Positions 1 through 11,255 of a stretch of DNA of 64,000 nt are shown piece after piece. The notes beneath the pieces were generated by a model. The model made no database searches, was not told where the DNA came from, and saw only the letters and a program-made list of their open reading frames with translations. Source of the stretch: Chiloscyllium plagiosum (Eukaryota); assembly GCF_004010195.1 (NCBI RefSeq), contig NC_057719.1, positions 48,718,914-48,782,913 of the forward strand, given 5' to 3'. How positions within the stretch are numbered: position 1 is the first letter of the stretch; each line of letters begins with the position of its first letter. Position numbers and translations under genes: made by a program.

Positions 1-737
1 CCAGAGTCTTATACAACTGCAATATGACCTCAGTACTCCGGAACTCAATTCCTCTACCAATAAAAGCCAGTATGCCGTATGCCTTCTTCACCGCACTATT
101 TACCTGGGTGGCAACTTTCAAAGATTTGTGTACATGGACACCAAGATCCCTCTGCTCATCCACACTACCAAGTATCCGACCGTTAGCCCCGTACCCCATC
201 TTTTTATTACTCTTACCAAAGTGAATCACCTCACACTTAGCTACATTGAACTCCATTTGCCACCTTTCTGCCCAGTTCTGCAGCTTATCTATATCCCGCT
301 GTAACCTGCCACATCCTTCCTCACTGTCTACAACTCCTCCGACTTTCGTATCATCCGCAAACTTGCTCATCAACCTTCTAACCCCTCCTCCAGGTCATTT
401 ATAAAAATGACAAACAGCAATGGTCCCAAAACAGATCCTTGCGGAACACCGCTAGTGACGGCACTCCAAAATGAACCTTTGCCGTCAACTACTACCCTCT
501 GTCTTCTTCCGGCCAGCCAACTCCTAATCCAAACCTCCAACTCACCCTCAATGCCATACCTCCGTATTTTTGGCAGTAGTCTACCATGGGGAACCTTATC
601 AAATGCCTTACTAAAATCCATATACACCACATCTACCGCTTTCCCCTCGTCCACCTCCTTAGTCACCTTCTCAAAGAATTCAATAAGGTTTGTGAGGCAC
701 GACCTGCCCTTCACAAAACCATGCTGACTATCCTTGA
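1..737 (-). mobile_element. CR1/HER1-type LINE ORF2 reverse transcriptase fragment, 5'-truncated exactly at the array motif; continues off the window
   Basis: ORF 370-714(-) has the CR1 RT motifs [27 protein letters not shown] and [14 protein letters not shown]. The sequence continues into FADD-region and downstream CR1 sequence toward position 1. Confidence 0.95.
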
Positions 738-751
738 CACTCCTGTTTATA

Positions 752-1156
752 ATATTTTATTAAACAAATTACAAAATAATTTACAAAAAACAGTTAACAT
801 TTACAGCTGTATACAACAGCAATTTTACAAGGGAGAGGAGCAGCAAAGCTAGGCCCCAAACCCTACTGTTCAACCAGTTTACAGGGAAATGAGGACAAAC
901 CACAAATCCCAGTTTCAAAAATAAAAAGACAGCAACAATGACCTTTATACATAAGACAATCCAGTTACATTAAAAAAAAAGTGCAGACAATACAGACCCA
1001 GCAAGCCCCCGTCCCTCCCATCTTCCGGCCACTCTAAGGCAGCCCGCCCCTACCCACCTTCCGGCTCTTGGTCCACCCCATGCCCTTTCCAGTTCTCGGT
1101 CCGCCCTGAGACACCTTTTGACCACCTCTAGGACAGCCCAACAGCGGTCAGGACGG
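752..1156 (-). mobile_element. Unclassified retroposon 3' end (type A), copy 1
   Basis: On the - strand: a GC-rich part, then an AT-rich 3'UTR-like part with AATAAA running straight into TATAAACAGGAGTG. Flanked both sides by CACTCCTGTTTATA. Paralogous to 1171-1710. Confidence 0.7.
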
Positions 1157-1170
1157 CACTCCTGTTTATA

Positions 1171-1710
1171 ATATTTTATTAAATAAATTACAAAATACAG
1201 TTTACAAAAAAAAGTAACATTTACAGCTGTATGCAACAGCAATTTTACAAGGGAGAGGAGCAGCAAAGCCAGGCCCCAAACCCTACCGTTCAACCAGTTT
1301 AAAGGGAGATGAGAACAAACCTCAAATTCCAGTTTCACATATAAAAAGACACAGTGACAATGACATTTGTACATAAAAGGGCAATCCAGTTACATAAAAA
1401 AGTGCATACAATACAGACCCAGCAATCCCCTGTCCCTCCCACCATTCGACCACTCTAAGGCAGCGCGCCCCTACCCACCTTCCGGCTCTTGGTCCACCCC
1501 ATGCCCCTTCCAGTTCTCAGTCTGCCCTGACACACCTTTTGACCACCTCTAGGACTGCCCGCCCCGGTACCTGCCCAGGGTGACAGCGGGCAGGACGGCC
1601 TACCCACCTTCTGGCTTCACTAGCCACCCTCAGCACCTTTCGACCACCTCTAGGGCAGCCCGCCCCGGTACCTGCCCAGGGTAGCCCGCCCCGGTACCTG
1701 CCCAGGACGG
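1171..1710 (-). mobile_element. Unclassified retroposon 3' end (type A), copy 2, longer, with internal subrepeats
   Basis: Aligns by eye with 752-1156 with scattered substitutions and indels. The extra 5' part contains repeated GCCCGCCCCGGTACCTGCCCAGG. Confidence 0.7.
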
Positions 1711-2292
1711 CACTCCTGTTTATTTTTTTCTTTTTTGTTCTTTGTTTTTCTTTGTTGAGCAGAACCTCTGACACTCCTGTTCCTTTTTTTTAAAAAAACC
1801 CACATTACTGCCTAACTGCGGTAGTGCTTATTTTTTCCCCAGCACCCATGTTGTGTGTGTGCAGGTATGAGACACAGGCACTCCTTTTTTTTTACTACTT
1901 CTTTTTTCTTTTTTTATTTTATAGCCAGCTCTCAGAGTGAACAGGATGTTTGACACCCCTGTTTTTTTTCCACCAGCACCCATGTTGTGTGTGTGCAGGT
2001 GTGAGACACAGGCACTCTTGTTTATTATTCACATCAAAGGGCAGTGCTATGTGATCAAAACAGTGAAGGGGAGGGTAGGGACTAAATCAAAATAGAGTTG
2101 GTGGGAGAAATAATGCACTCCACACACTCCTGTTTATTTTTTTTCTCCTTTTTTATTTTTTTTATTTTTTTTCTCTTTTTTTATAATATTAACCCCCACA
2201 CTACCACCTAAGTGCGGTAGTGCTGATAAACACTGTCCTTCACATCAAAGGGCAGTGCTGTGTGATCAAAACAGTGAAGGGGAGGGTAGGGA

Positions 2293-2448
2293 CTAAATCA
2301 AAATAGAGTTGGAGGGAGAAATGATGCACTCCACTCCCTGCGGCGCCCACCTCTCCCTGAACAACTCCAGGGTGTTGGTGGACACTGTGTGCTCCTTCTC
2401 CAAGGACACCCGGGCTCTAACGTAACTGCGGAAGAGGGGCAGGCAGTC
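2293..2448 (-). pseudogene. C-terminal 51 codons of Tx1-like ORF2 (not in the ORF track)
   Basis: Manual translation gives DCLPLFRSYVRARVSLEKEHTVSTNTLELFRERWAPQGVECIISPSNSILI*. This matches the typical Tx1 ORF2 C-terminal pattern (FR..VR.R...E.......L..F...WA..GV.C). Confidence 0.85.
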
Positions 2449-3182
2449 AGCACACTCCTGTTTATTTTATTTTTTTTCTTTTTCTTATTTAAACCCCACA
2501 CTACCACCTAAGTGCGGTAGTGCTTATTTTATCCCCAGCACCCATGGTGTGTGTGTGTGCAGGTGTGAGATACAGTGAAAGACACAAAGTGCACGAATCT
2601 TTATTCAATTTCCACCACCAGGAAGATAGGAAAACACCCGAGTGGCCAGTGACAAACACTGCCCTTCACAGCAAAGGGCAGTGCTGTGTGATCAAAACAG
2701 TGAAGGGGAGGGGAGGGACTAAATCAAAATAGAGTTGGAGGGAGAAATAATGCACTCCACGCCCTGCAACACTCCTGTTTTTCTTTCCCCAGGGTATTGG
2801 TCGACACCGCGTGTTCCTTCTCCAAGGACACCCGGAACACTCCCCTTTATATTCTTTTTTTTTCAGTGACAAACACTGCCCTTAACACTTCTTTTTTTTT
2901 CCTTTTAACCCCCACAATACCACCTAAGTGCGGTAGTGCTTATTTTATCCCCAGCACCCATAGTGTGTGTGTGCAGGTGTGAGACACAGTGAAAGACACA
3001 AAGTGCACAAATCTTTATTCAANNNNNNNNNNNNNNNNNNNNNNNNNNNNNNNNNNNNNNNNNNNNNNNNNNNNNNNNNNNNNNNNNNNNNNNNNNNNNN
3101 NNNNNNNNNNNNNNNNNNNNNNNNNNNNNNNNNNNNNNACACCATGGGTGCTGGGGAAAAAATAAGCACTACCGCAGTGGGG

Positions 3183-3310
3183 TGTAGGTTTGATATCCAG
3201 ACGTTTCGTTACCTGGCTGGGTAACATCATCAGTGGCGACCTCCAAGTGAAGCGCTTCACTGATGATGTTACCCAGCCAGGTAATGAAACGTCTGGATAT
3301 CAAACCTACA
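3183..3310. mobile_element. Penelope-like pseudo-LTR fragment in inverted arrangement, with a minimal hammerhead-like motif
   Basis: CTGATGA-tGTTACC-cagcca-GGTAAT-GAAAC at 3260-3290, with its reverse complement at ~3202-3234. It shares the GAAGCGCTTCAC motif with the Penelope element at 18130-18798. Confidence 0.75.
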
Positions 3311-3918
3311 CCCCACTGCGGTAGTGCTTATTTTTTCCCCTGCACCCATGGTGTGTGTGTGCAGGTGTGGGACACAGTGGAAGACACAAAGTGCACCGAT
3401 CTTTATTCAATTTCCACCACCAGGAATATAGGAAAACACCCGGGTGGCCAGTGACAAACACTGCCCTTCACATCAAAGGGCAGTGCTGTGTGATCAAAAC
3501 AGTGAAGGGGAGGGTAGGGACTAAATCAAAATATAGTTGGAGGGAGAAATGATGCACTCCACTCCCTGCAGCCACACTCCTGTTTATTTATTTATTTATT
3601 TATTTATTTTCCTTTCAAATCTTTATTCAAATTCCACCACCAGGAAGATAGGAAAACACCCGGGTGAAAACTCCCCTTTTTTTTATTTTAACCCCCACAC
3701 TACCATCTAAGTGCAGTAGTGCTTATTTTATCCCCAGCACCCATGGTGTGTGTGTGCAGGTGTGAGACACAGTGAAAGACACAAAGAAAGAAAGGGCAGT
3801 GCTGTGTGATCAAAACAGTGAAGGGGAGGGTAGGGACTAAATCAAAATAGAGTTGGAGGGAGAAATGATGCACTCCACTCCCTGCGGCCGCACTCCTGTT
3901 TATTTATTTATTATTTTT

Positions 3919-4178
3919 TAAACAGGCCCTTCGGCCCAACAAGTCCACACCGACCCGCCGAAGCGCAACCCACCCATACCCCTACATTTACCCCTTAGTA
4001 TGACCTGACCCTGCACATCTTTGGATGGTGGGAGGAAACCGGAGCACCCGGAAGAAACCCACGCAGACACGGGGAGAACGTGCAAGCTCCACACAGTCAG
4101 TCGCCTGAGGCGGGAATTGAACCCAGGTCTCTGGCGCTGTGAGGCAGCAGTGCTAACCACTGTGCCACCGTGCCGCCC
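3919..4178 (-). mobile_element. HE1-type tRNA-derived V-SINE with a non-canonical A-rich tail, inserted at the array target site
   Basis: On -, it starts GGGCGGCACGGTGGCACAGTGGTTAGCACTGCTGCCTCACAGC (A box; B box GGTTCAATTCC) and ends GGGCCTGTTT plus an A-rich tail. Nearly identical to 46294-46613 apart from an internal deletion and the tail. Confidence 0.95.
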
Positions 4179-4279
4179 ACACACTCCTGTTTATATCTGT
4201 CAGTCAGGACTCCCTGATTGGACCAGGTTAACTCATATTGAATGAGGTCCACCTGGCTGACCTTGTTCCAATCATTCCA
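4179..4279 (-). promoter_or_regulatory. Upstream half of the insertion target: LTR-U3-like sequence with CCAAT and TATA boxes
   Basis: The - strand reads ...GTTAACCTGGTCCAATCAGGGAGTCCTGACTGACAGATATAAACAGGAGTGT. This is the only motif copy not preceded by a retroposon 3' end. The LTR assignment is inferred from the CCAAT/TATA layout. Confidence 0.55.
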
Positions 4280-5465
4280 CTCCAACATGAGGGCTTGGAG
4301 ATGGCAGTGACCATGCCATCAAGAGTGAAATTGTGGATATTGTCCCCACTACCTGTTTTAGTCCAGGGTGGAAAAGCGAGAGGGGGCCTTCCTCCCTAGA
4401 GGCCAATTGAAGCCCATAGGTGGCTATTCTATTCATTAATTTGGTTCATACAATAAGACACAGAACTGATCTTGGAGAAGTAATATTTAATAGATGGTTT
4501 CTATCAAGTTTTTAAACATATCAATTAAAATCATTATAAAGACCATCCCTTTGGAGAAGATATTACAATATCAAATAAATTAAGAAATAAAATGAGTCCA
4601 TGTATCTTGTGCTGTATTTATGAAAAGGTCTGTACAGTTGCTTAACAAAAATGCAAATTCCAGCAAGCTCATGTGATGTGCTGTCTTATCTGACCAGTAG
4701 GTAAATTTGTGAGTAATTAAAATCAACTGGTCTAGCTGATCCTGCCTTTAGCTATTCCATTAGTTAATTATCTCCCCACTTGGTGTTAAAAATGCCTGTT
4801 CAGTGACACCAAGAGTCAAAGAAAGGAGCTAAATTACTTTAATTATTGAGTAATTGCACACAGCGATGTTAATTAAATCTTGATCAGTTTGACTAAGTGA
4901 ATTGATTTCTCTTACTTAGAATGCAAACCACAGAGAGACAAGCCATTTCATAGTTTAATTAACATTACCTTATCACATCCCCAACATACTAAACAGACAT
5001 TAAACTCAGTTAGGTCTCAGTGATATTTTTCTCTTGTTTTCATACGATGTCAGCAATATTTGCTCCATCACAGTTACAATATATATATATAAAATATGTT
5101 GTTTAACTTTAAGGTTGTATCCTTTGTCATTTCCAGAAGGTGAACATGTAGCATTATTGTGTTCACATTTTCCTCCTGTGAATGCAGGCCATTTTTCTTA
5201 ACACAGAGGGCGACACTGGCTTGGCCCAAGTGATCAATCCCAAAATTAAATAAAAATGCTACTTTTTTAGAGGGGCACAACCAATAAAAACCCAAAGGAA
5301 ACATTTCAAGTTGATATAAAGCATTGTTCACATTCTCCTTTAAAGGCTGCAAAAAGTGCAGCTCAGTTTTATAAAACAAAGAACTGGGGATATTGGAGAT
5401 CTCAAATAAACAAAAACAGAAATTGCTTGTGAAACTCAGCAGATCTGGCATCATCTGTGAGAGTT

Positions 5466-9302: not shown

Positions 9303-11255
9303 TTCAAAAGCTGATCGGGGGCAGATGTTCGCAGGTAAAGGGACGGCTGGAAAGTGGGAAGCCTTCAGAAATGAGATGACAAGAATCCAGAGAAAGTATA
9401 TTCCTGTCAGGGTGAAAGGAAAGGCTGGTAGGTATAGGGAATACTGGATGACTAAAGAAATTGAGGGTTTGGTTAAGAAAAAGAACGAAGCATATGTAAG
9501 GTATAGACAGGATAGATTGAGTGAATCCTTAGAAGAGTATAAAGGCAGTAAGAGTATACTTAAGAGGGAAATCAGGAGGGCAAAAAGGGGAATGAAATAG
9601 CTTTGGCAAAGAGAGTTAAGGAGAATTCAAAAGGTTTTTACAAATACATGAAGGACAAAAGGGTAACTAGAGAGAGAATAGGGCCCCTCATAGATCAGCA
9701 AGGTGGCCTTTGTGTGGAGCCGCAGAAAATGGGGGAGATACTAAACGAGTATTTTGCATCAGTATTTACAGTGGAAAAGGATATGGAACATATAGACTGT
9801 AGGGAAATAGATGGTGACACCTTGCAAAATATCTACATTACAGAGGAGGAAGTGCTGGATGTCTTAAAATGCATAAAGGTGAATAACTCCCCATGACCTG
9901 ATCAGGTGTACCCAAGAACTCTGTGGGAAGCTAGAGAGGTGATTGCTGGGCCTCTTGCTGAGATATTTGTATCATCGATAGTCACAGGTGAGGTGCCGGA
10001 AGACTGGAGGTTGGCAAACGTGGTGCCACTGTTTAAGAAGGGTGGTAAGGACAAGCCAGGGAACTATAGACCAGTGAGCCTGACCTCGGTGGTGATCAAG
10101 TTGTTGGAGGGATTCCTGAGGGACAGGATGTACATGTATTTGGAAAGGCAAGGACTGATNNNNNNNNNNNNNNNNNNNNNNNNNNNNNNNNNNNNNNNNN
10201 NNNNNNNNNNNNNNNNNNNNNNNNNNNNNNNNNNNNNNNNNNNNNNNNNNNNNNNNNNNNNNNNNNNNNNNNNNNNNNNNNNNNNNNNNNNNNNNNNNNN
10301 NNNNNNNNNNNNNNNNNNNNNNNNNNNNNNNNNNNNNNNNNNNNNNNNNNNNNNNNNNNNNNNNNNNNNNNNNNNNNNNNNNNNNNNNNNNNNNNNNNNN
10401 NNNNNNNNNNNNNNNNNNNNNNNNNNNNNNNNNNNNNNNNNNNNNNNNNNNNNNNNNNNNNNNNNNNNNNNNNNNNNNNNNNNNNNNNNNNNNNNNNNNN
10501 NNNNNNNNNNNNNNNNNNNNNNNATGGGGAGCGTTGCTGAAACAAAGAGACCTTGAAGTGCAGGTTCATAGCTCCTTGAAAGTGGAGTCACAGGTAGATA
10601 GGATAGTGAAGAAGGCATTTGGGATGCTTTCTTTTGTTGGTCATAGTACTGAGTACAGGAGTTGGGAGGTCATGTTGAGGCTGTACAGGTCATTGGTTAG
10701 GCCACTGTTGGAATATTGTGTGCAATTCTGGTCTCCTTCCCATCAGAAAAATGTTGTGAAATTTGAAAGGGTTCAGAAAAGATTTACAAGGATGTCGCCA
10801 AGGTTGGAGGATTTGAGCTACAGGGTAAGGCTGAACAGGCTGGGGTTGTTTTCCCTGGAGTGTCGGATGCTGAGGGGTGACCTTATAGAGGTTTACAAAA
10901 TTATGAGGGGCATGGATAGGATAAATAGACAAAGTCTCTTCCCTGGGTTGAGGGAGTCCAGAACTAGAGTGCATCGGTTTAGGATGAGAGGGGAAAGATA
11001 TAAAAGAGACCTAAAGGGCAACTTTTTCACGGAGAAGGTAGTACGTGTATGGAATGAGCTGCCAGAGGAAGTGGTGGAGGCTGGTACAATTGCAACACTT
11101 AAAAGGCATTTGGATGGGTATATGAATAGGAAGGATTTGGAGGGATATGGGCTGGGTGCTGGCAGGTGGGACTAGATTGGGTTGGGATATCTGGCTGGCA
11201 TGGATGGGTTGGACCGAAGGGTCTGTTTCCATGCTATACATCCCTATGACTCTAT
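9303..11255 (+). mobile_element. CR1/HER1 LINE, 5'-truncated ORF2 to 3' tail, interrupted by the gap at 10160-10523
   Basis: ORFs 9325-11175 carry PEDWRLANVVPLFKKG, NYRPVSLTSVV and RGDLIEVYKIMRG, with stops and frameshifts between them. Confidence 0.95.

Follow-up and report, generated by a model that had tools for sequence, protein, structure and literature searches.

How some fifteen tailed inserts came to be stacked at a single short motif is the question raised by positions 738-4279 of a 64,000-nucleotide stretch of the Chiloscyllium plagiosum genome (NC_057719.1, positions 48,718,914 to 48,782,913 of the forward strand), referred to here as the window. The best explanation overall, and one that we consider very likely, is that a site-preferring Tx1 LINE stacked within an LTR, new cDNA probably annealing to an older neighbour. 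In agreement with a previous reading of the sequence alone (hereafter the sequence-only reading), 16 copies of CACTCCTGTTT (10 exact) alternated with 15 tailed inserts on the minus strand, and all 15 units had on that strand the order insert, A-rich tail, motif. The form CACTCCTGTT was present in 10 exact and 3 one-mismatch copies between positions 738 and 4191, every one on the plus strand, and the whole window contained 18 matches with at most one mismatch, whereas shuffles averaged 5.6 and never exceeded 13 (0 of 100 reached 18). Three degenerate copies at 2837, 2885 and 3668, each followed by a T-run, brought the total to 16; the search for degenerate motifs gave 21 hits, from which 4 chance hits in family A bodies and 1 overlapping duplicate were subtracted. 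The features of the locus are listed below.

1-736, minus: broken LINE reverse-transcriptase fragment (Pfam RVT_1, E 1e-9 over 437-735), presumably CR1-like; its 5'-truncated end adjoins the leftmost motif, its 3' end falls within the N run that precedes the window, and it is either one more insert or the flank
737-748, plus: leftmost target/TSD copy
1156, 1710, 1771, 1878, 1953, 2012, 2124, 2452: further motif starts, first half
2769, 2837, 2885, 3574, 3668, 3890, 4181: further motif starts, second half
749-1155, minus: family A insert 1, retroposon 3' end with short A-rich tail, 89.8% to insert 2
1168-1709, minus: family A insert 2, with the 8-nt 5' junction of insert 1 and a different truncation point
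1722-1770, minus: A-rich tail and 15 nt of LTR sequence from downstream of the motif
1783-1877, minus: family B (Tx1) 3' end, ~95 nt
1890-1952, minus: A-rich tail and 33-nt LTR piece, of a different LTR variant from the piece in 1722-1770
1965-2011, minus: family B piece cut at both ends, 5' junction identical to that of 1783-1877
2024-2123, minus: family B piece lacking both ends, from the last ORF2 codons into the beginning of the 3' UTR
2136-2451, minus: family B insert with internal deletion, ORF2 C-terminus at 2293-2451
2464-2768, minus: family B 3' end, ~290 nt plus tail
2781-2884, minus: two short family B pieces, each lacking both ends (2781-2836, 2849-2884), degenerate motif between them
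2897-3022, minus: family B 3' end entering the N gap 3023-3138
3139-3354, no strand: inverted repeat beside the gap, 92.7% over 218 nt
3317-3573, minus: family B insert, 5' junction in common with 3680-3889
3586-3667, minus: family B piece ending just past an internal AATAAA, long A-rich tail
3680-3889, minus: family B insert, ~100 nt of 3' end, jump at AAAG microhomology, last ~100 nt
3902-4180, minus: tRNA-type SINE, which we take to be HE1-like, with an A-rich tail in place of the usual 3' end
4181-4283, minus: 5' (U3) part of the host LTR, the last motif copy being its probable TATA box

The inserts had been described as heterogeneous, and families A and B, a SINE and LTR pieces were indeed all present, but about 10 of the 15 units were family B pieces, several of them truncated at both ends, and the cargo of the array was mostly the 3' end of the LINE itself. 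The ORF2 C-terminus already attributed to Tx1 was found at 2293-2451, with 43% identity over 42 aa to residues 1251-1292 of Tx1L. No clear age gradient was seen along the array, and a search of 700-4400 against Rfam gave 8 matches, none of which reached the gathering score. A CRISPR-like repeat-spacer system was considered and rejected on unit structure: besides dedicated integrase and effector genes, such systems have fixed repeat and spacer lengths, whereas the units here range from 48 to 689 nt, the motif differs by locus and the inserts are mostly self-derived.

The array at this locus was confirmed as real. The array does contain an N gap with an adjoining fold-back, and its left end is hidden by a large gap (3,955 N directly precede the window), as might be expected of an assembly artefact of short repeats. 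Its units, however, are unlike one another in sequence, in their ends and in their tails; many loci carry comparable arrays, each with its own variant of the target, and one of these arrays (L043) has both LTR halves around it. Such an origin is extremely improbable. The present array is one among many in the genome. Unit 2885-3574 consists of two family B copies, the gap 3023-3138 and the inverted repeat (216 bp), which is either genuine or an assembly artefact; it comprises a family B 3' end folded round another piece and gave only sub-threshold hairpin matches in Rfam. We take its central piece to be Penelope/hammerhead-like. Public runs contained at most 0.50 of the words sampled from 700-3020, these being repeat words that are uninformative on junctions.

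The main insert family, family B, belongs to the Tx1 clade, as the sequence-only reading had held of the enzyme, and is sister to Tx1L of Xenopus. Its ORF2, taken from locus L074, contained Exo_endo_phos (PF03372, E 1e-11) and RVT_1 (PF00078, E 8.5e-24) domains and a zf-RVT match under the Pfam cut-off; its endonuclease was matched by L1 endonuclease structures (E 1e-18), and the 679-aa query was 54% identical to Tx1L (YTX2_XENLA) along its full length. In a quick 20-row tree without bootstrap, in which the relatives were 19 of 120 listed hits, family B grouped with Tx1L and turtle relatives (SH-aLRT 99); the homologues listed included no sequence labelled as Keno, Tx1-Mar or Tx1-8_Crp. An A-rich 3' tail, 5' truncation and TSDs were all present in family B copies. 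A gap-free full-length element, whose rebuilding had been proposed as a check, was not found: the long-ORF hits L072 and L073 were mostly N gaps, and the endonuclease-reverse transcriptase copy of L074 was joined to the family B 3' end via one scaffold (L073) with a gap in between.

Family A is a non-coding retroposon, ~1.9 kb in its long copies and with 2,712 first-look candidates genome-wide, of which the inserts here are the 3' end. A coding LINE was rejected for this family, tblastn with 5 ORF2 proteins at 6 loci having recovered only a family B piece. The array SINE lacked the 3' end that was present in 3 of 3 other copies in the window. As described in the relevant part of PMC3747384, the SINE 3' tail in the HE1 V-SINE/HER1 CR1 pair is common with the CR1 partner LINE. 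The family B enzyme may well have mobilised family A, this SINE without its tail and the LTR pieces.

The motif is target DNA rather than an element terminus, as had been supposed, because the LTR's own left flank was retained at 915 of 1,697 exact motif sites and because TSDs at insert junctions reproduced the local variant of the site. These 1,697 genome-wide matches compared with 5 for controls. Most of the motif sites sampled were empty; 30 of 30 sampled loci continued into one repeat, and in 5 of the 30 the motif directly abutted family A or B. The motif probably sits at the TATA box of a dispersed Gypsy-type LTR of ~250 bp, for which an abundance pattern gave at least 2,347 matches versus 0 for controls. 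Ends of the form TG...CA and an adjacent polypurine tract were seen in L004, L007, L012 and L021, and sequence upstream of the L021 LTR matched RT_RNaseH (PF17917, E 5e-24) and PF17919 (E 2e-16), this being one of four fragments with a match. A search for an integrase after the RNase H gave no relevant Pfam match in 3 fragments and no homologue, and L007 carries what we presume to be an integrase-like motif. In the window, the LTR part at 4181-4283 was 70-75% identical to 8 LTR loci over 107-120 columns, the other half of the LTR being absent from view. The location of the target inside an LTR did not figure in the sequence-only reading.

Targeting was strong but relaxed. An LTR piece was found at 22 of 38 family B loci (1.1-3.3 kb) and 3 of 12 family A loci (1 kb), all of them best-scoring hits rather than a random draw, as opposed to 0 of 18 control chunks. 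Thus the flanks of family B are non-random, as had been claimed, and 15 of 35 junctions matched at least 9 of the 12 motif bases, compared with 0.5% of the background. Orientation agreed within the locus for 118 of 122 family B hits. By the criterion of Kojima for a target-specific Tx1 family (one sequence type in >20% of flanks), family B is target-specific. The sequence specificity claimed earlier is nevertheless overstated, since 16 of the 38 loci lacked an LTR piece and 20 of the 35 junctions matched fewer than 9 bases (only 6 of 35 matched 11-12), which indicates preference and not strict homing.

The new point here is that 5' junctions are shared within one array. An identical 5' junction was noted in 41 of 171 within-array pairs as opposed to 45 of 5,185 between-locus pairs, and permutation of shared 5' ends gave a maximum of 12 in 5,000. 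Copies with the same junction differed by 1.5-20%, and this divergence was concentrated away from the junction (9 of 493 sites differed in the 30 nt nearest the shared end, as opposed to 171 of 3,519 at more than 60 nt; p = 0.001 for 17 groups), copies being about as divergent beyond 60 nt as copies of other loci. Because junctions are common within arrays and copies are alike near the junction without likeness of their bodies, the inserts are not all independent, and the locus cannot be read as a record of wholly independent insertions. Untemplated bases were included in the shared junctions of L033 and L048, and target microhomology alone was ruled out as the cause of shared ends for L033, L043 and L048. 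Two further candidates were rejected: long TSDs that take in the left flank whether or not there is homology, since 0 of 20 short units (chosen among 100 listed of 116 matches) matched their own left flank, and copying of short Tx1-like pieces from the right-hand unit, since 0 of 8 had a matched junction within 0.7-1.1 kb when only motifs with at most one mismatch were scored. The CATGTTGTG allele common to two window units lends weak support, not being private to them (14 of 89 copies elsewhere).

A single event per array, in which the reverse transcriptase copied one RNA repeatedly and jumped across the target overhang, would leave copies that have a single 5' end but various 3' ends and tails. 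This origin is largely refuted, and we regard it as barely tenable, by the differences among same-junction copies, which join different subfamilies in 3 of the 17 groups, and by the mixture of families A and B, SINE and LTR pieces in arrays. It is also rather improbable that read-through RNA from the locus's own LTR promoter, comprising the motif and first insert and often 3'-truncated, was copied back into the array. The inserts do lie just downstream of the probable TATA box and in sense, and LTR pieces derived from other LTR copies always end at the motif, which suggests motif-containing RNA templates; in addition, for 12 of 12 same-junction units that are 3'-truncated a full copy lies towards the promoter, a polarity confounded by the centring of loci on young full copies. 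Such RNA, however, predicts whole-unit likeness, which the divergence beyond 60 nt contradicts, and at L051 and L053 it is the copy nearest the promoter that is young, the far copies being old.

Targeted insertion might instead have been followed by DNA recombination between neighbours, either unequal exchange or nick-started gene conversion. Recombination yields chimeras of the same kind and would account for the junctions shared by non-adjacent units in L043, L111 and L114; 14 of 17 groups were haplotype-concordant, as plain duplication also gives, although most were of the majority type and hence carry little information. Unequal exchange, on the other hand, should duplicate tails and small units, whereas in L043 the tails and small in-between units differ among all five copies, and likeness drops with distance from the junction. 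Jumps from the 3' end into a neighbour's last 23-100 nt, seen at 3680-3889 of the window and twice in L123, better fit a switch during synthesis. We consider recombination unlikely, and lean, by a little, towards annealing of new cDNA to an older neighbour as the origin of the 5' junction. L1 cDNA in cultured cells reportedly forms chimeras with resident L1.

Enzyme family, target, orientation and local TSDs were read directly from the genome, and the following steps would connect them. The family B enzyme would nick at a site that it favours, approximately YCTGTTTA^TAT as read on the plus strand; the best and commonest match to this site would be the TATA-box region of the LTR, and target-primed reverse transcription would place the RNA in the LTR sense direction. 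About 8-15 nt of the local site would be copied as TSD, and the site, being preserved by this copying, could be hit repeatedly. New copies would land mostly at the motif adjoining U3; the new cDNA, where homologous or microhomologous to the older neighbour, would pair with the neighbour's strand, and second-strand synthesis, beginning inside the neighbour, would give the new copy the neighbour's 5' end and junction. Tentatively, with the chances slightly against it, arrays may be polarised, growing at the TATA/U3 end and handing on one junction through insertions of different subfamilies. The best-matching copy had 47 other units on its left and 13 on its right, and 43:26 after removal of query-selected copies (p = 0.053, pairs not independent).

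Second-strand priming is, to our knowledge, the least understood step of LINE integration. If annealing to neighbours is true, tract lengths and order could be worked out from the many natural events that the arrays supply, and if polarised hand-over is true, the arrays are an ordered record of second-strand completion and of the RNAs captured over time. They also warn against taking common truncation points as proof that tandem LINEs arose by DNA duplication, and a Tx1 endonuclease with an apparently short, relaxed target offers one more case for comparison in studies of how APE enzymes choose their targets. The LTR promoter is probably either disabled or exploited by the LINE.

The targeting itself is a further example of a known habit, that of a Tx1 LINE inside another mobile element. 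Tx1L of Xenopus laevis (YTX2_XENLA, P0005), the closest named protein to family B, inserts in the DNA transposon Tx1D, according to the portion of PMC4494074 that treats it; both target another mobile element, but here the target is probably an LTR TATA region and specificity is relaxed. This target and the mixed array had been thought possibly undescribed. The same source (Kojima 2015) reports the habit for crocodilian Tx1-8_Crp, Tx1-4_AMi and Tx1-Mar with SINEU-3, which favour a site within other transposons, among them LTR retrotransposons; their tandem inserts sandwich the TSD, non-autonomous elements use the same target and preference ranges from strong to weak. Family B is alike in LTR targeting, in target sharing by non-autonomous elements and in tandem inserts round the TSD, and differs in host and target sequence; main-text passages of that source describe neither 15-unit mixed arrays nor shared 5' junctions. 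Openly accessible literature yielded no paper on this target or on the passing of a junction from copy to copy within Tx1 arrays. Trypanosome ingi/RIME, L1Tc/NARTc and TSIDER1 are, in the part of PMC3820030 concerned, autonomous and non-autonomous retroposons in tandem with only the TSD between them, and for Drosophila double insertions the corresponding part of bioRxiv 10.1101/158386 takes distinct 5' truncations, as in 6 of 10 jockey dimers, to indicate that the insertions were independent. Both resemble the present arrays in that site-preferring insertion preserves the target and permits further insertions; they belong to other clades, and compared with Drosophila the arrays here show a large excess of shared truncations. 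In Drosophila R1 and R2, as set out in the pertinent sections of Stage and Eickbush (2009, PMC2718515), top-strand cleavage is flexible and the cDNA anneals to the top strand via microhomology or target sequence carried by the RNA. Homology in that case is to the rDNA target, whereas here it is apparently to a resident copy of the element.

The window, G000:C10:48718914-48782913, belongs to a 3.56-Gb vertebrate genome whose repeats resemble cartilaginous-fish repeats. Between window positions 738 and 4191, CACTCCTGTT occurred as 10 exact copies and 3 copies with one mismatch, all on a single strand, and three further degenerate copies, each ahead of a T-run, brought the total to 16. Motif matches in the whole window numbered 18, a count reached by none of 100 shuffles, and the stacked array at one motif proposed from the sequence-only reading is thus real. 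Its 15 units, each ordered on the minus strand as insert, A-rich tail and motif, comprised approximately 10 pieces of family B (a Tx1-clade LINE), 2 of family A (a second insert family), 2 short LTR pieces and 1 tRNA-type SINE. The leftmost motif was adjoined by a broken RT fragment (Pfam RVT_1), and the left end of the array cannot be placed because a gap of 3,955 Ns directly precedes window base 1. Inside the array were a 116-N gap and, adjoining it, a fold-back of 216 bp (window 3139-3354), both arms of which were family B 3' end; the piece between the arms is presumably Penelope/hammerhead-like, and the fold-back could be a true inverted insertion or an artefact. Another N gap (364 bases) occupied 10160-10523. 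Long-ORF matches in this assembly were often gaps, and open-frame lengths are therefore misleading.

The 16-mer CACTCCTGTTTATATC had 1,697 exact matches in the 3.56-Gb genome versus 5 for a reversed control. Sequence to the right of the motif continued into one common repeat at 30/30 fetched motif loci; family A or B lay directly at the motif in 5 of these, and most others had the repeat's own left half. Since this left half was present at most fetched loci and the left-flank bases CTGA were retained at 915 exact motif sites genome-wide, the motif is target DNA, as had been claimed. The repeat spanned approximately 250 bp, and four loci showed its TG...CA ends with a purine tract next to them. 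Because an RNase H of the RT type lay upstream of one copy (PF17917, E 5e-24; one of four fragments tested), the repeat is classed, on sequence grounds, as the LTR of a Ty3/Gypsy-type element; the searches made for an integrase of this element did not confirm one. On the LTR sense strand, which is also the direction of the inserts, the motif included TATAAA, which lay approximately 100 nt from the start of the LTR and preceded an AATAAA; the motif is probably the TATA box of the LTR. Exact CACTCCTGTTT was also noted within the repeat unit of 33-bp and 27-bp minisatellites (G000:C9:97519376-97524447, C17220 and C39:23969294-23969493), where it may stem from the LTR motif or be a chance match.

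Among loci that were best-scoring matches rather than a random draw, an LTR piece was present in 22/38 family B loci, 3/12 shorter family A loci and 0/18 control chunks. The anticipated enrichment of the motif at junctions (one per locus) was evident at 9 or more of 12 motif bases (15/35, against a background of 0.5%) but extended to only 6/35 at 11 or 12 bases. Several LTR sites that had diverged from the motif were still in use, and some targets were not LTRs. In one locus (L041), family B had used a GGTTA-type site within the head of a tRNA-type SINE, an off-target use of another repeat. At least two B units were found in 24/36 loci, and arrays are thus common; misassembly of the window array is argued against only indirectly. 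B hits shared one orientation within a locus in 118 of 122 cases. Three of the four opposite-strand hits came from a short contig (L057:1-800), either a fold-back or back-to-back arrays. One complete array (L043) was flanked by both halves of a solo LTR. Units were for the most part separated by the site in its local version, as required of a TSD and in keeping with the proposed regeneration of the target.

The ORF remnant at 2293-2451 matched the Tx1L ORF2 C-terminus and at least 150 genomic copies. On one scaffold (L073), the family B 3' end was joined across a gap to an endonuclease, a 94% relative of which had an open EN-RT frame (L074; Pfam Exo_endo_phos and RVT_1) with 54% identity to YTX2_XENLA over all 679 aa. 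This frame grouped with YTX2_XENLA and turtle relatives (SH-aLRT 99 in a quick, unbootstrapped 20-row tree), which bears out the Tx1 enzyme. Family A, approximately 1.9 kb in L077 plus L124 (G000:C11:32239983-32241850) and inserted at the same LTR site, gave no match to five ORF2 proteins and appears non-coding as far as tested. It was abundant, with internal GC-rich repeats, and not tRNA-headed as far as seen. The array SINE lacked the 3' end present in three other window copies and had an A-rich tail instead. Because of the common site and tail, both passengers were probably mobilised by the Tx1 enzyme. Adjoining a Tx1 copy was a 2-kb minisatellite of approximately 30-nt units (L072:1600-3675); its + strand had long open frames but is probably non-coding.

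Units within a locus often shared the position of their 5' end (41/171 within-locus pairs versus 45/5,185 between-locus pairs; permutation mean 2.8, maximum 12 in 5,000), and 15 of 24 multi-unit loci had at least one such pair.

Unit ends of shared-junction pairs in the window
1155 and 1709: first pair
1877 and 2011: second pair
3573 and 3889: third pair

Shared junctions included untemplated bases (L033 and L048), and those of three loci (L033, L043 and L048) had no microhomology to the target. Same-junction copies are not simple duplicates: beyond 60 nt, their divergence was similar to that between copies at different loci. With one pair taken for each of 17 groups, differences numbered 9/493 sites within 30 nt of the junction versus 171/3,519 farther off (p = 0.001), and the share of minor alleles in common dropped with distance from 0.41 to 0.05 (controls 0.03-0.07). 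Shared junctions joined different subfamilies in 3/17 groups and were concordant, mostly of the majority type, in 14/17. In another locus (L053), a young promoter-side copy and its old neighbour both carried one private base, located 12 nt away from the junction. Direct jumps from a unit's 3' end into the last 23-100 nt of its neighbour were noted at window 3680-3889 and twice in L123.

Relative to the best-matching copy, 47 units lay to the left and 13 to the right (43:26 without selected copies, p = 0.053). The U3 end of arrays thus tends to hold the younger units, and the window array itself showed no clear age gradient.

From these observations, which show the Tx1 enzyme, the LTR target, the insert orientation, local TSDs and the shared junctions, we infer a nick position, a U3-side preference and annealing of cDNA to a neighbour. 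A nick at approximately GTTTA^TAT would prime reverse transcription, the favoured insertion point being the motif that retains the U3-side bases; new cDNA resembling the neighbour downstream of the site would anneal to it, and second-strand synthesis would begin within that neighbour. For the shared junctions, later gene conversion or unequal exchange is a less likely but live rival source, and local read-through RNA a slightly less likely one. LTR-like pieces in short units derived from other LTR copies, and may be reverse-transcribed LTR RNA whose own motif served for the joining, by the same homology-guided step. Long TSDs formed regardless of homology failed as a candidate, the unit's own flank being copied by 0/20 short units. 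The inherited 5' junction, with the possible polarity, is the part of most use to specialists.

Neither this LTR target nor junction hand-over in Tx1 arrays was found in the literature searched, which lay outside Repbase, Dfam and most subscription journals. The suggestion that target and mixed array were undescribed holds to that extent for the target but not for the kind of array. According to Kojima 2015 (PMC4494074), crocodilian Tx1 families prefer Mariner, Harbinger or LTR elements, with co-targeted SINEs and tandem inserts around the TSD. Other reports describe mixed tandems with a TSD between members in trypanosomes (PMC3820030), tandems arising by double insertion (bioRxiv 10.1101/158386) and second strands primed by annealing in R1 and R2 (PMC2718515). 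The array resembles the crocodilian families in LTR preference and TSD-separated tandems, and belongs to an already known kind of Tx1 targeting.
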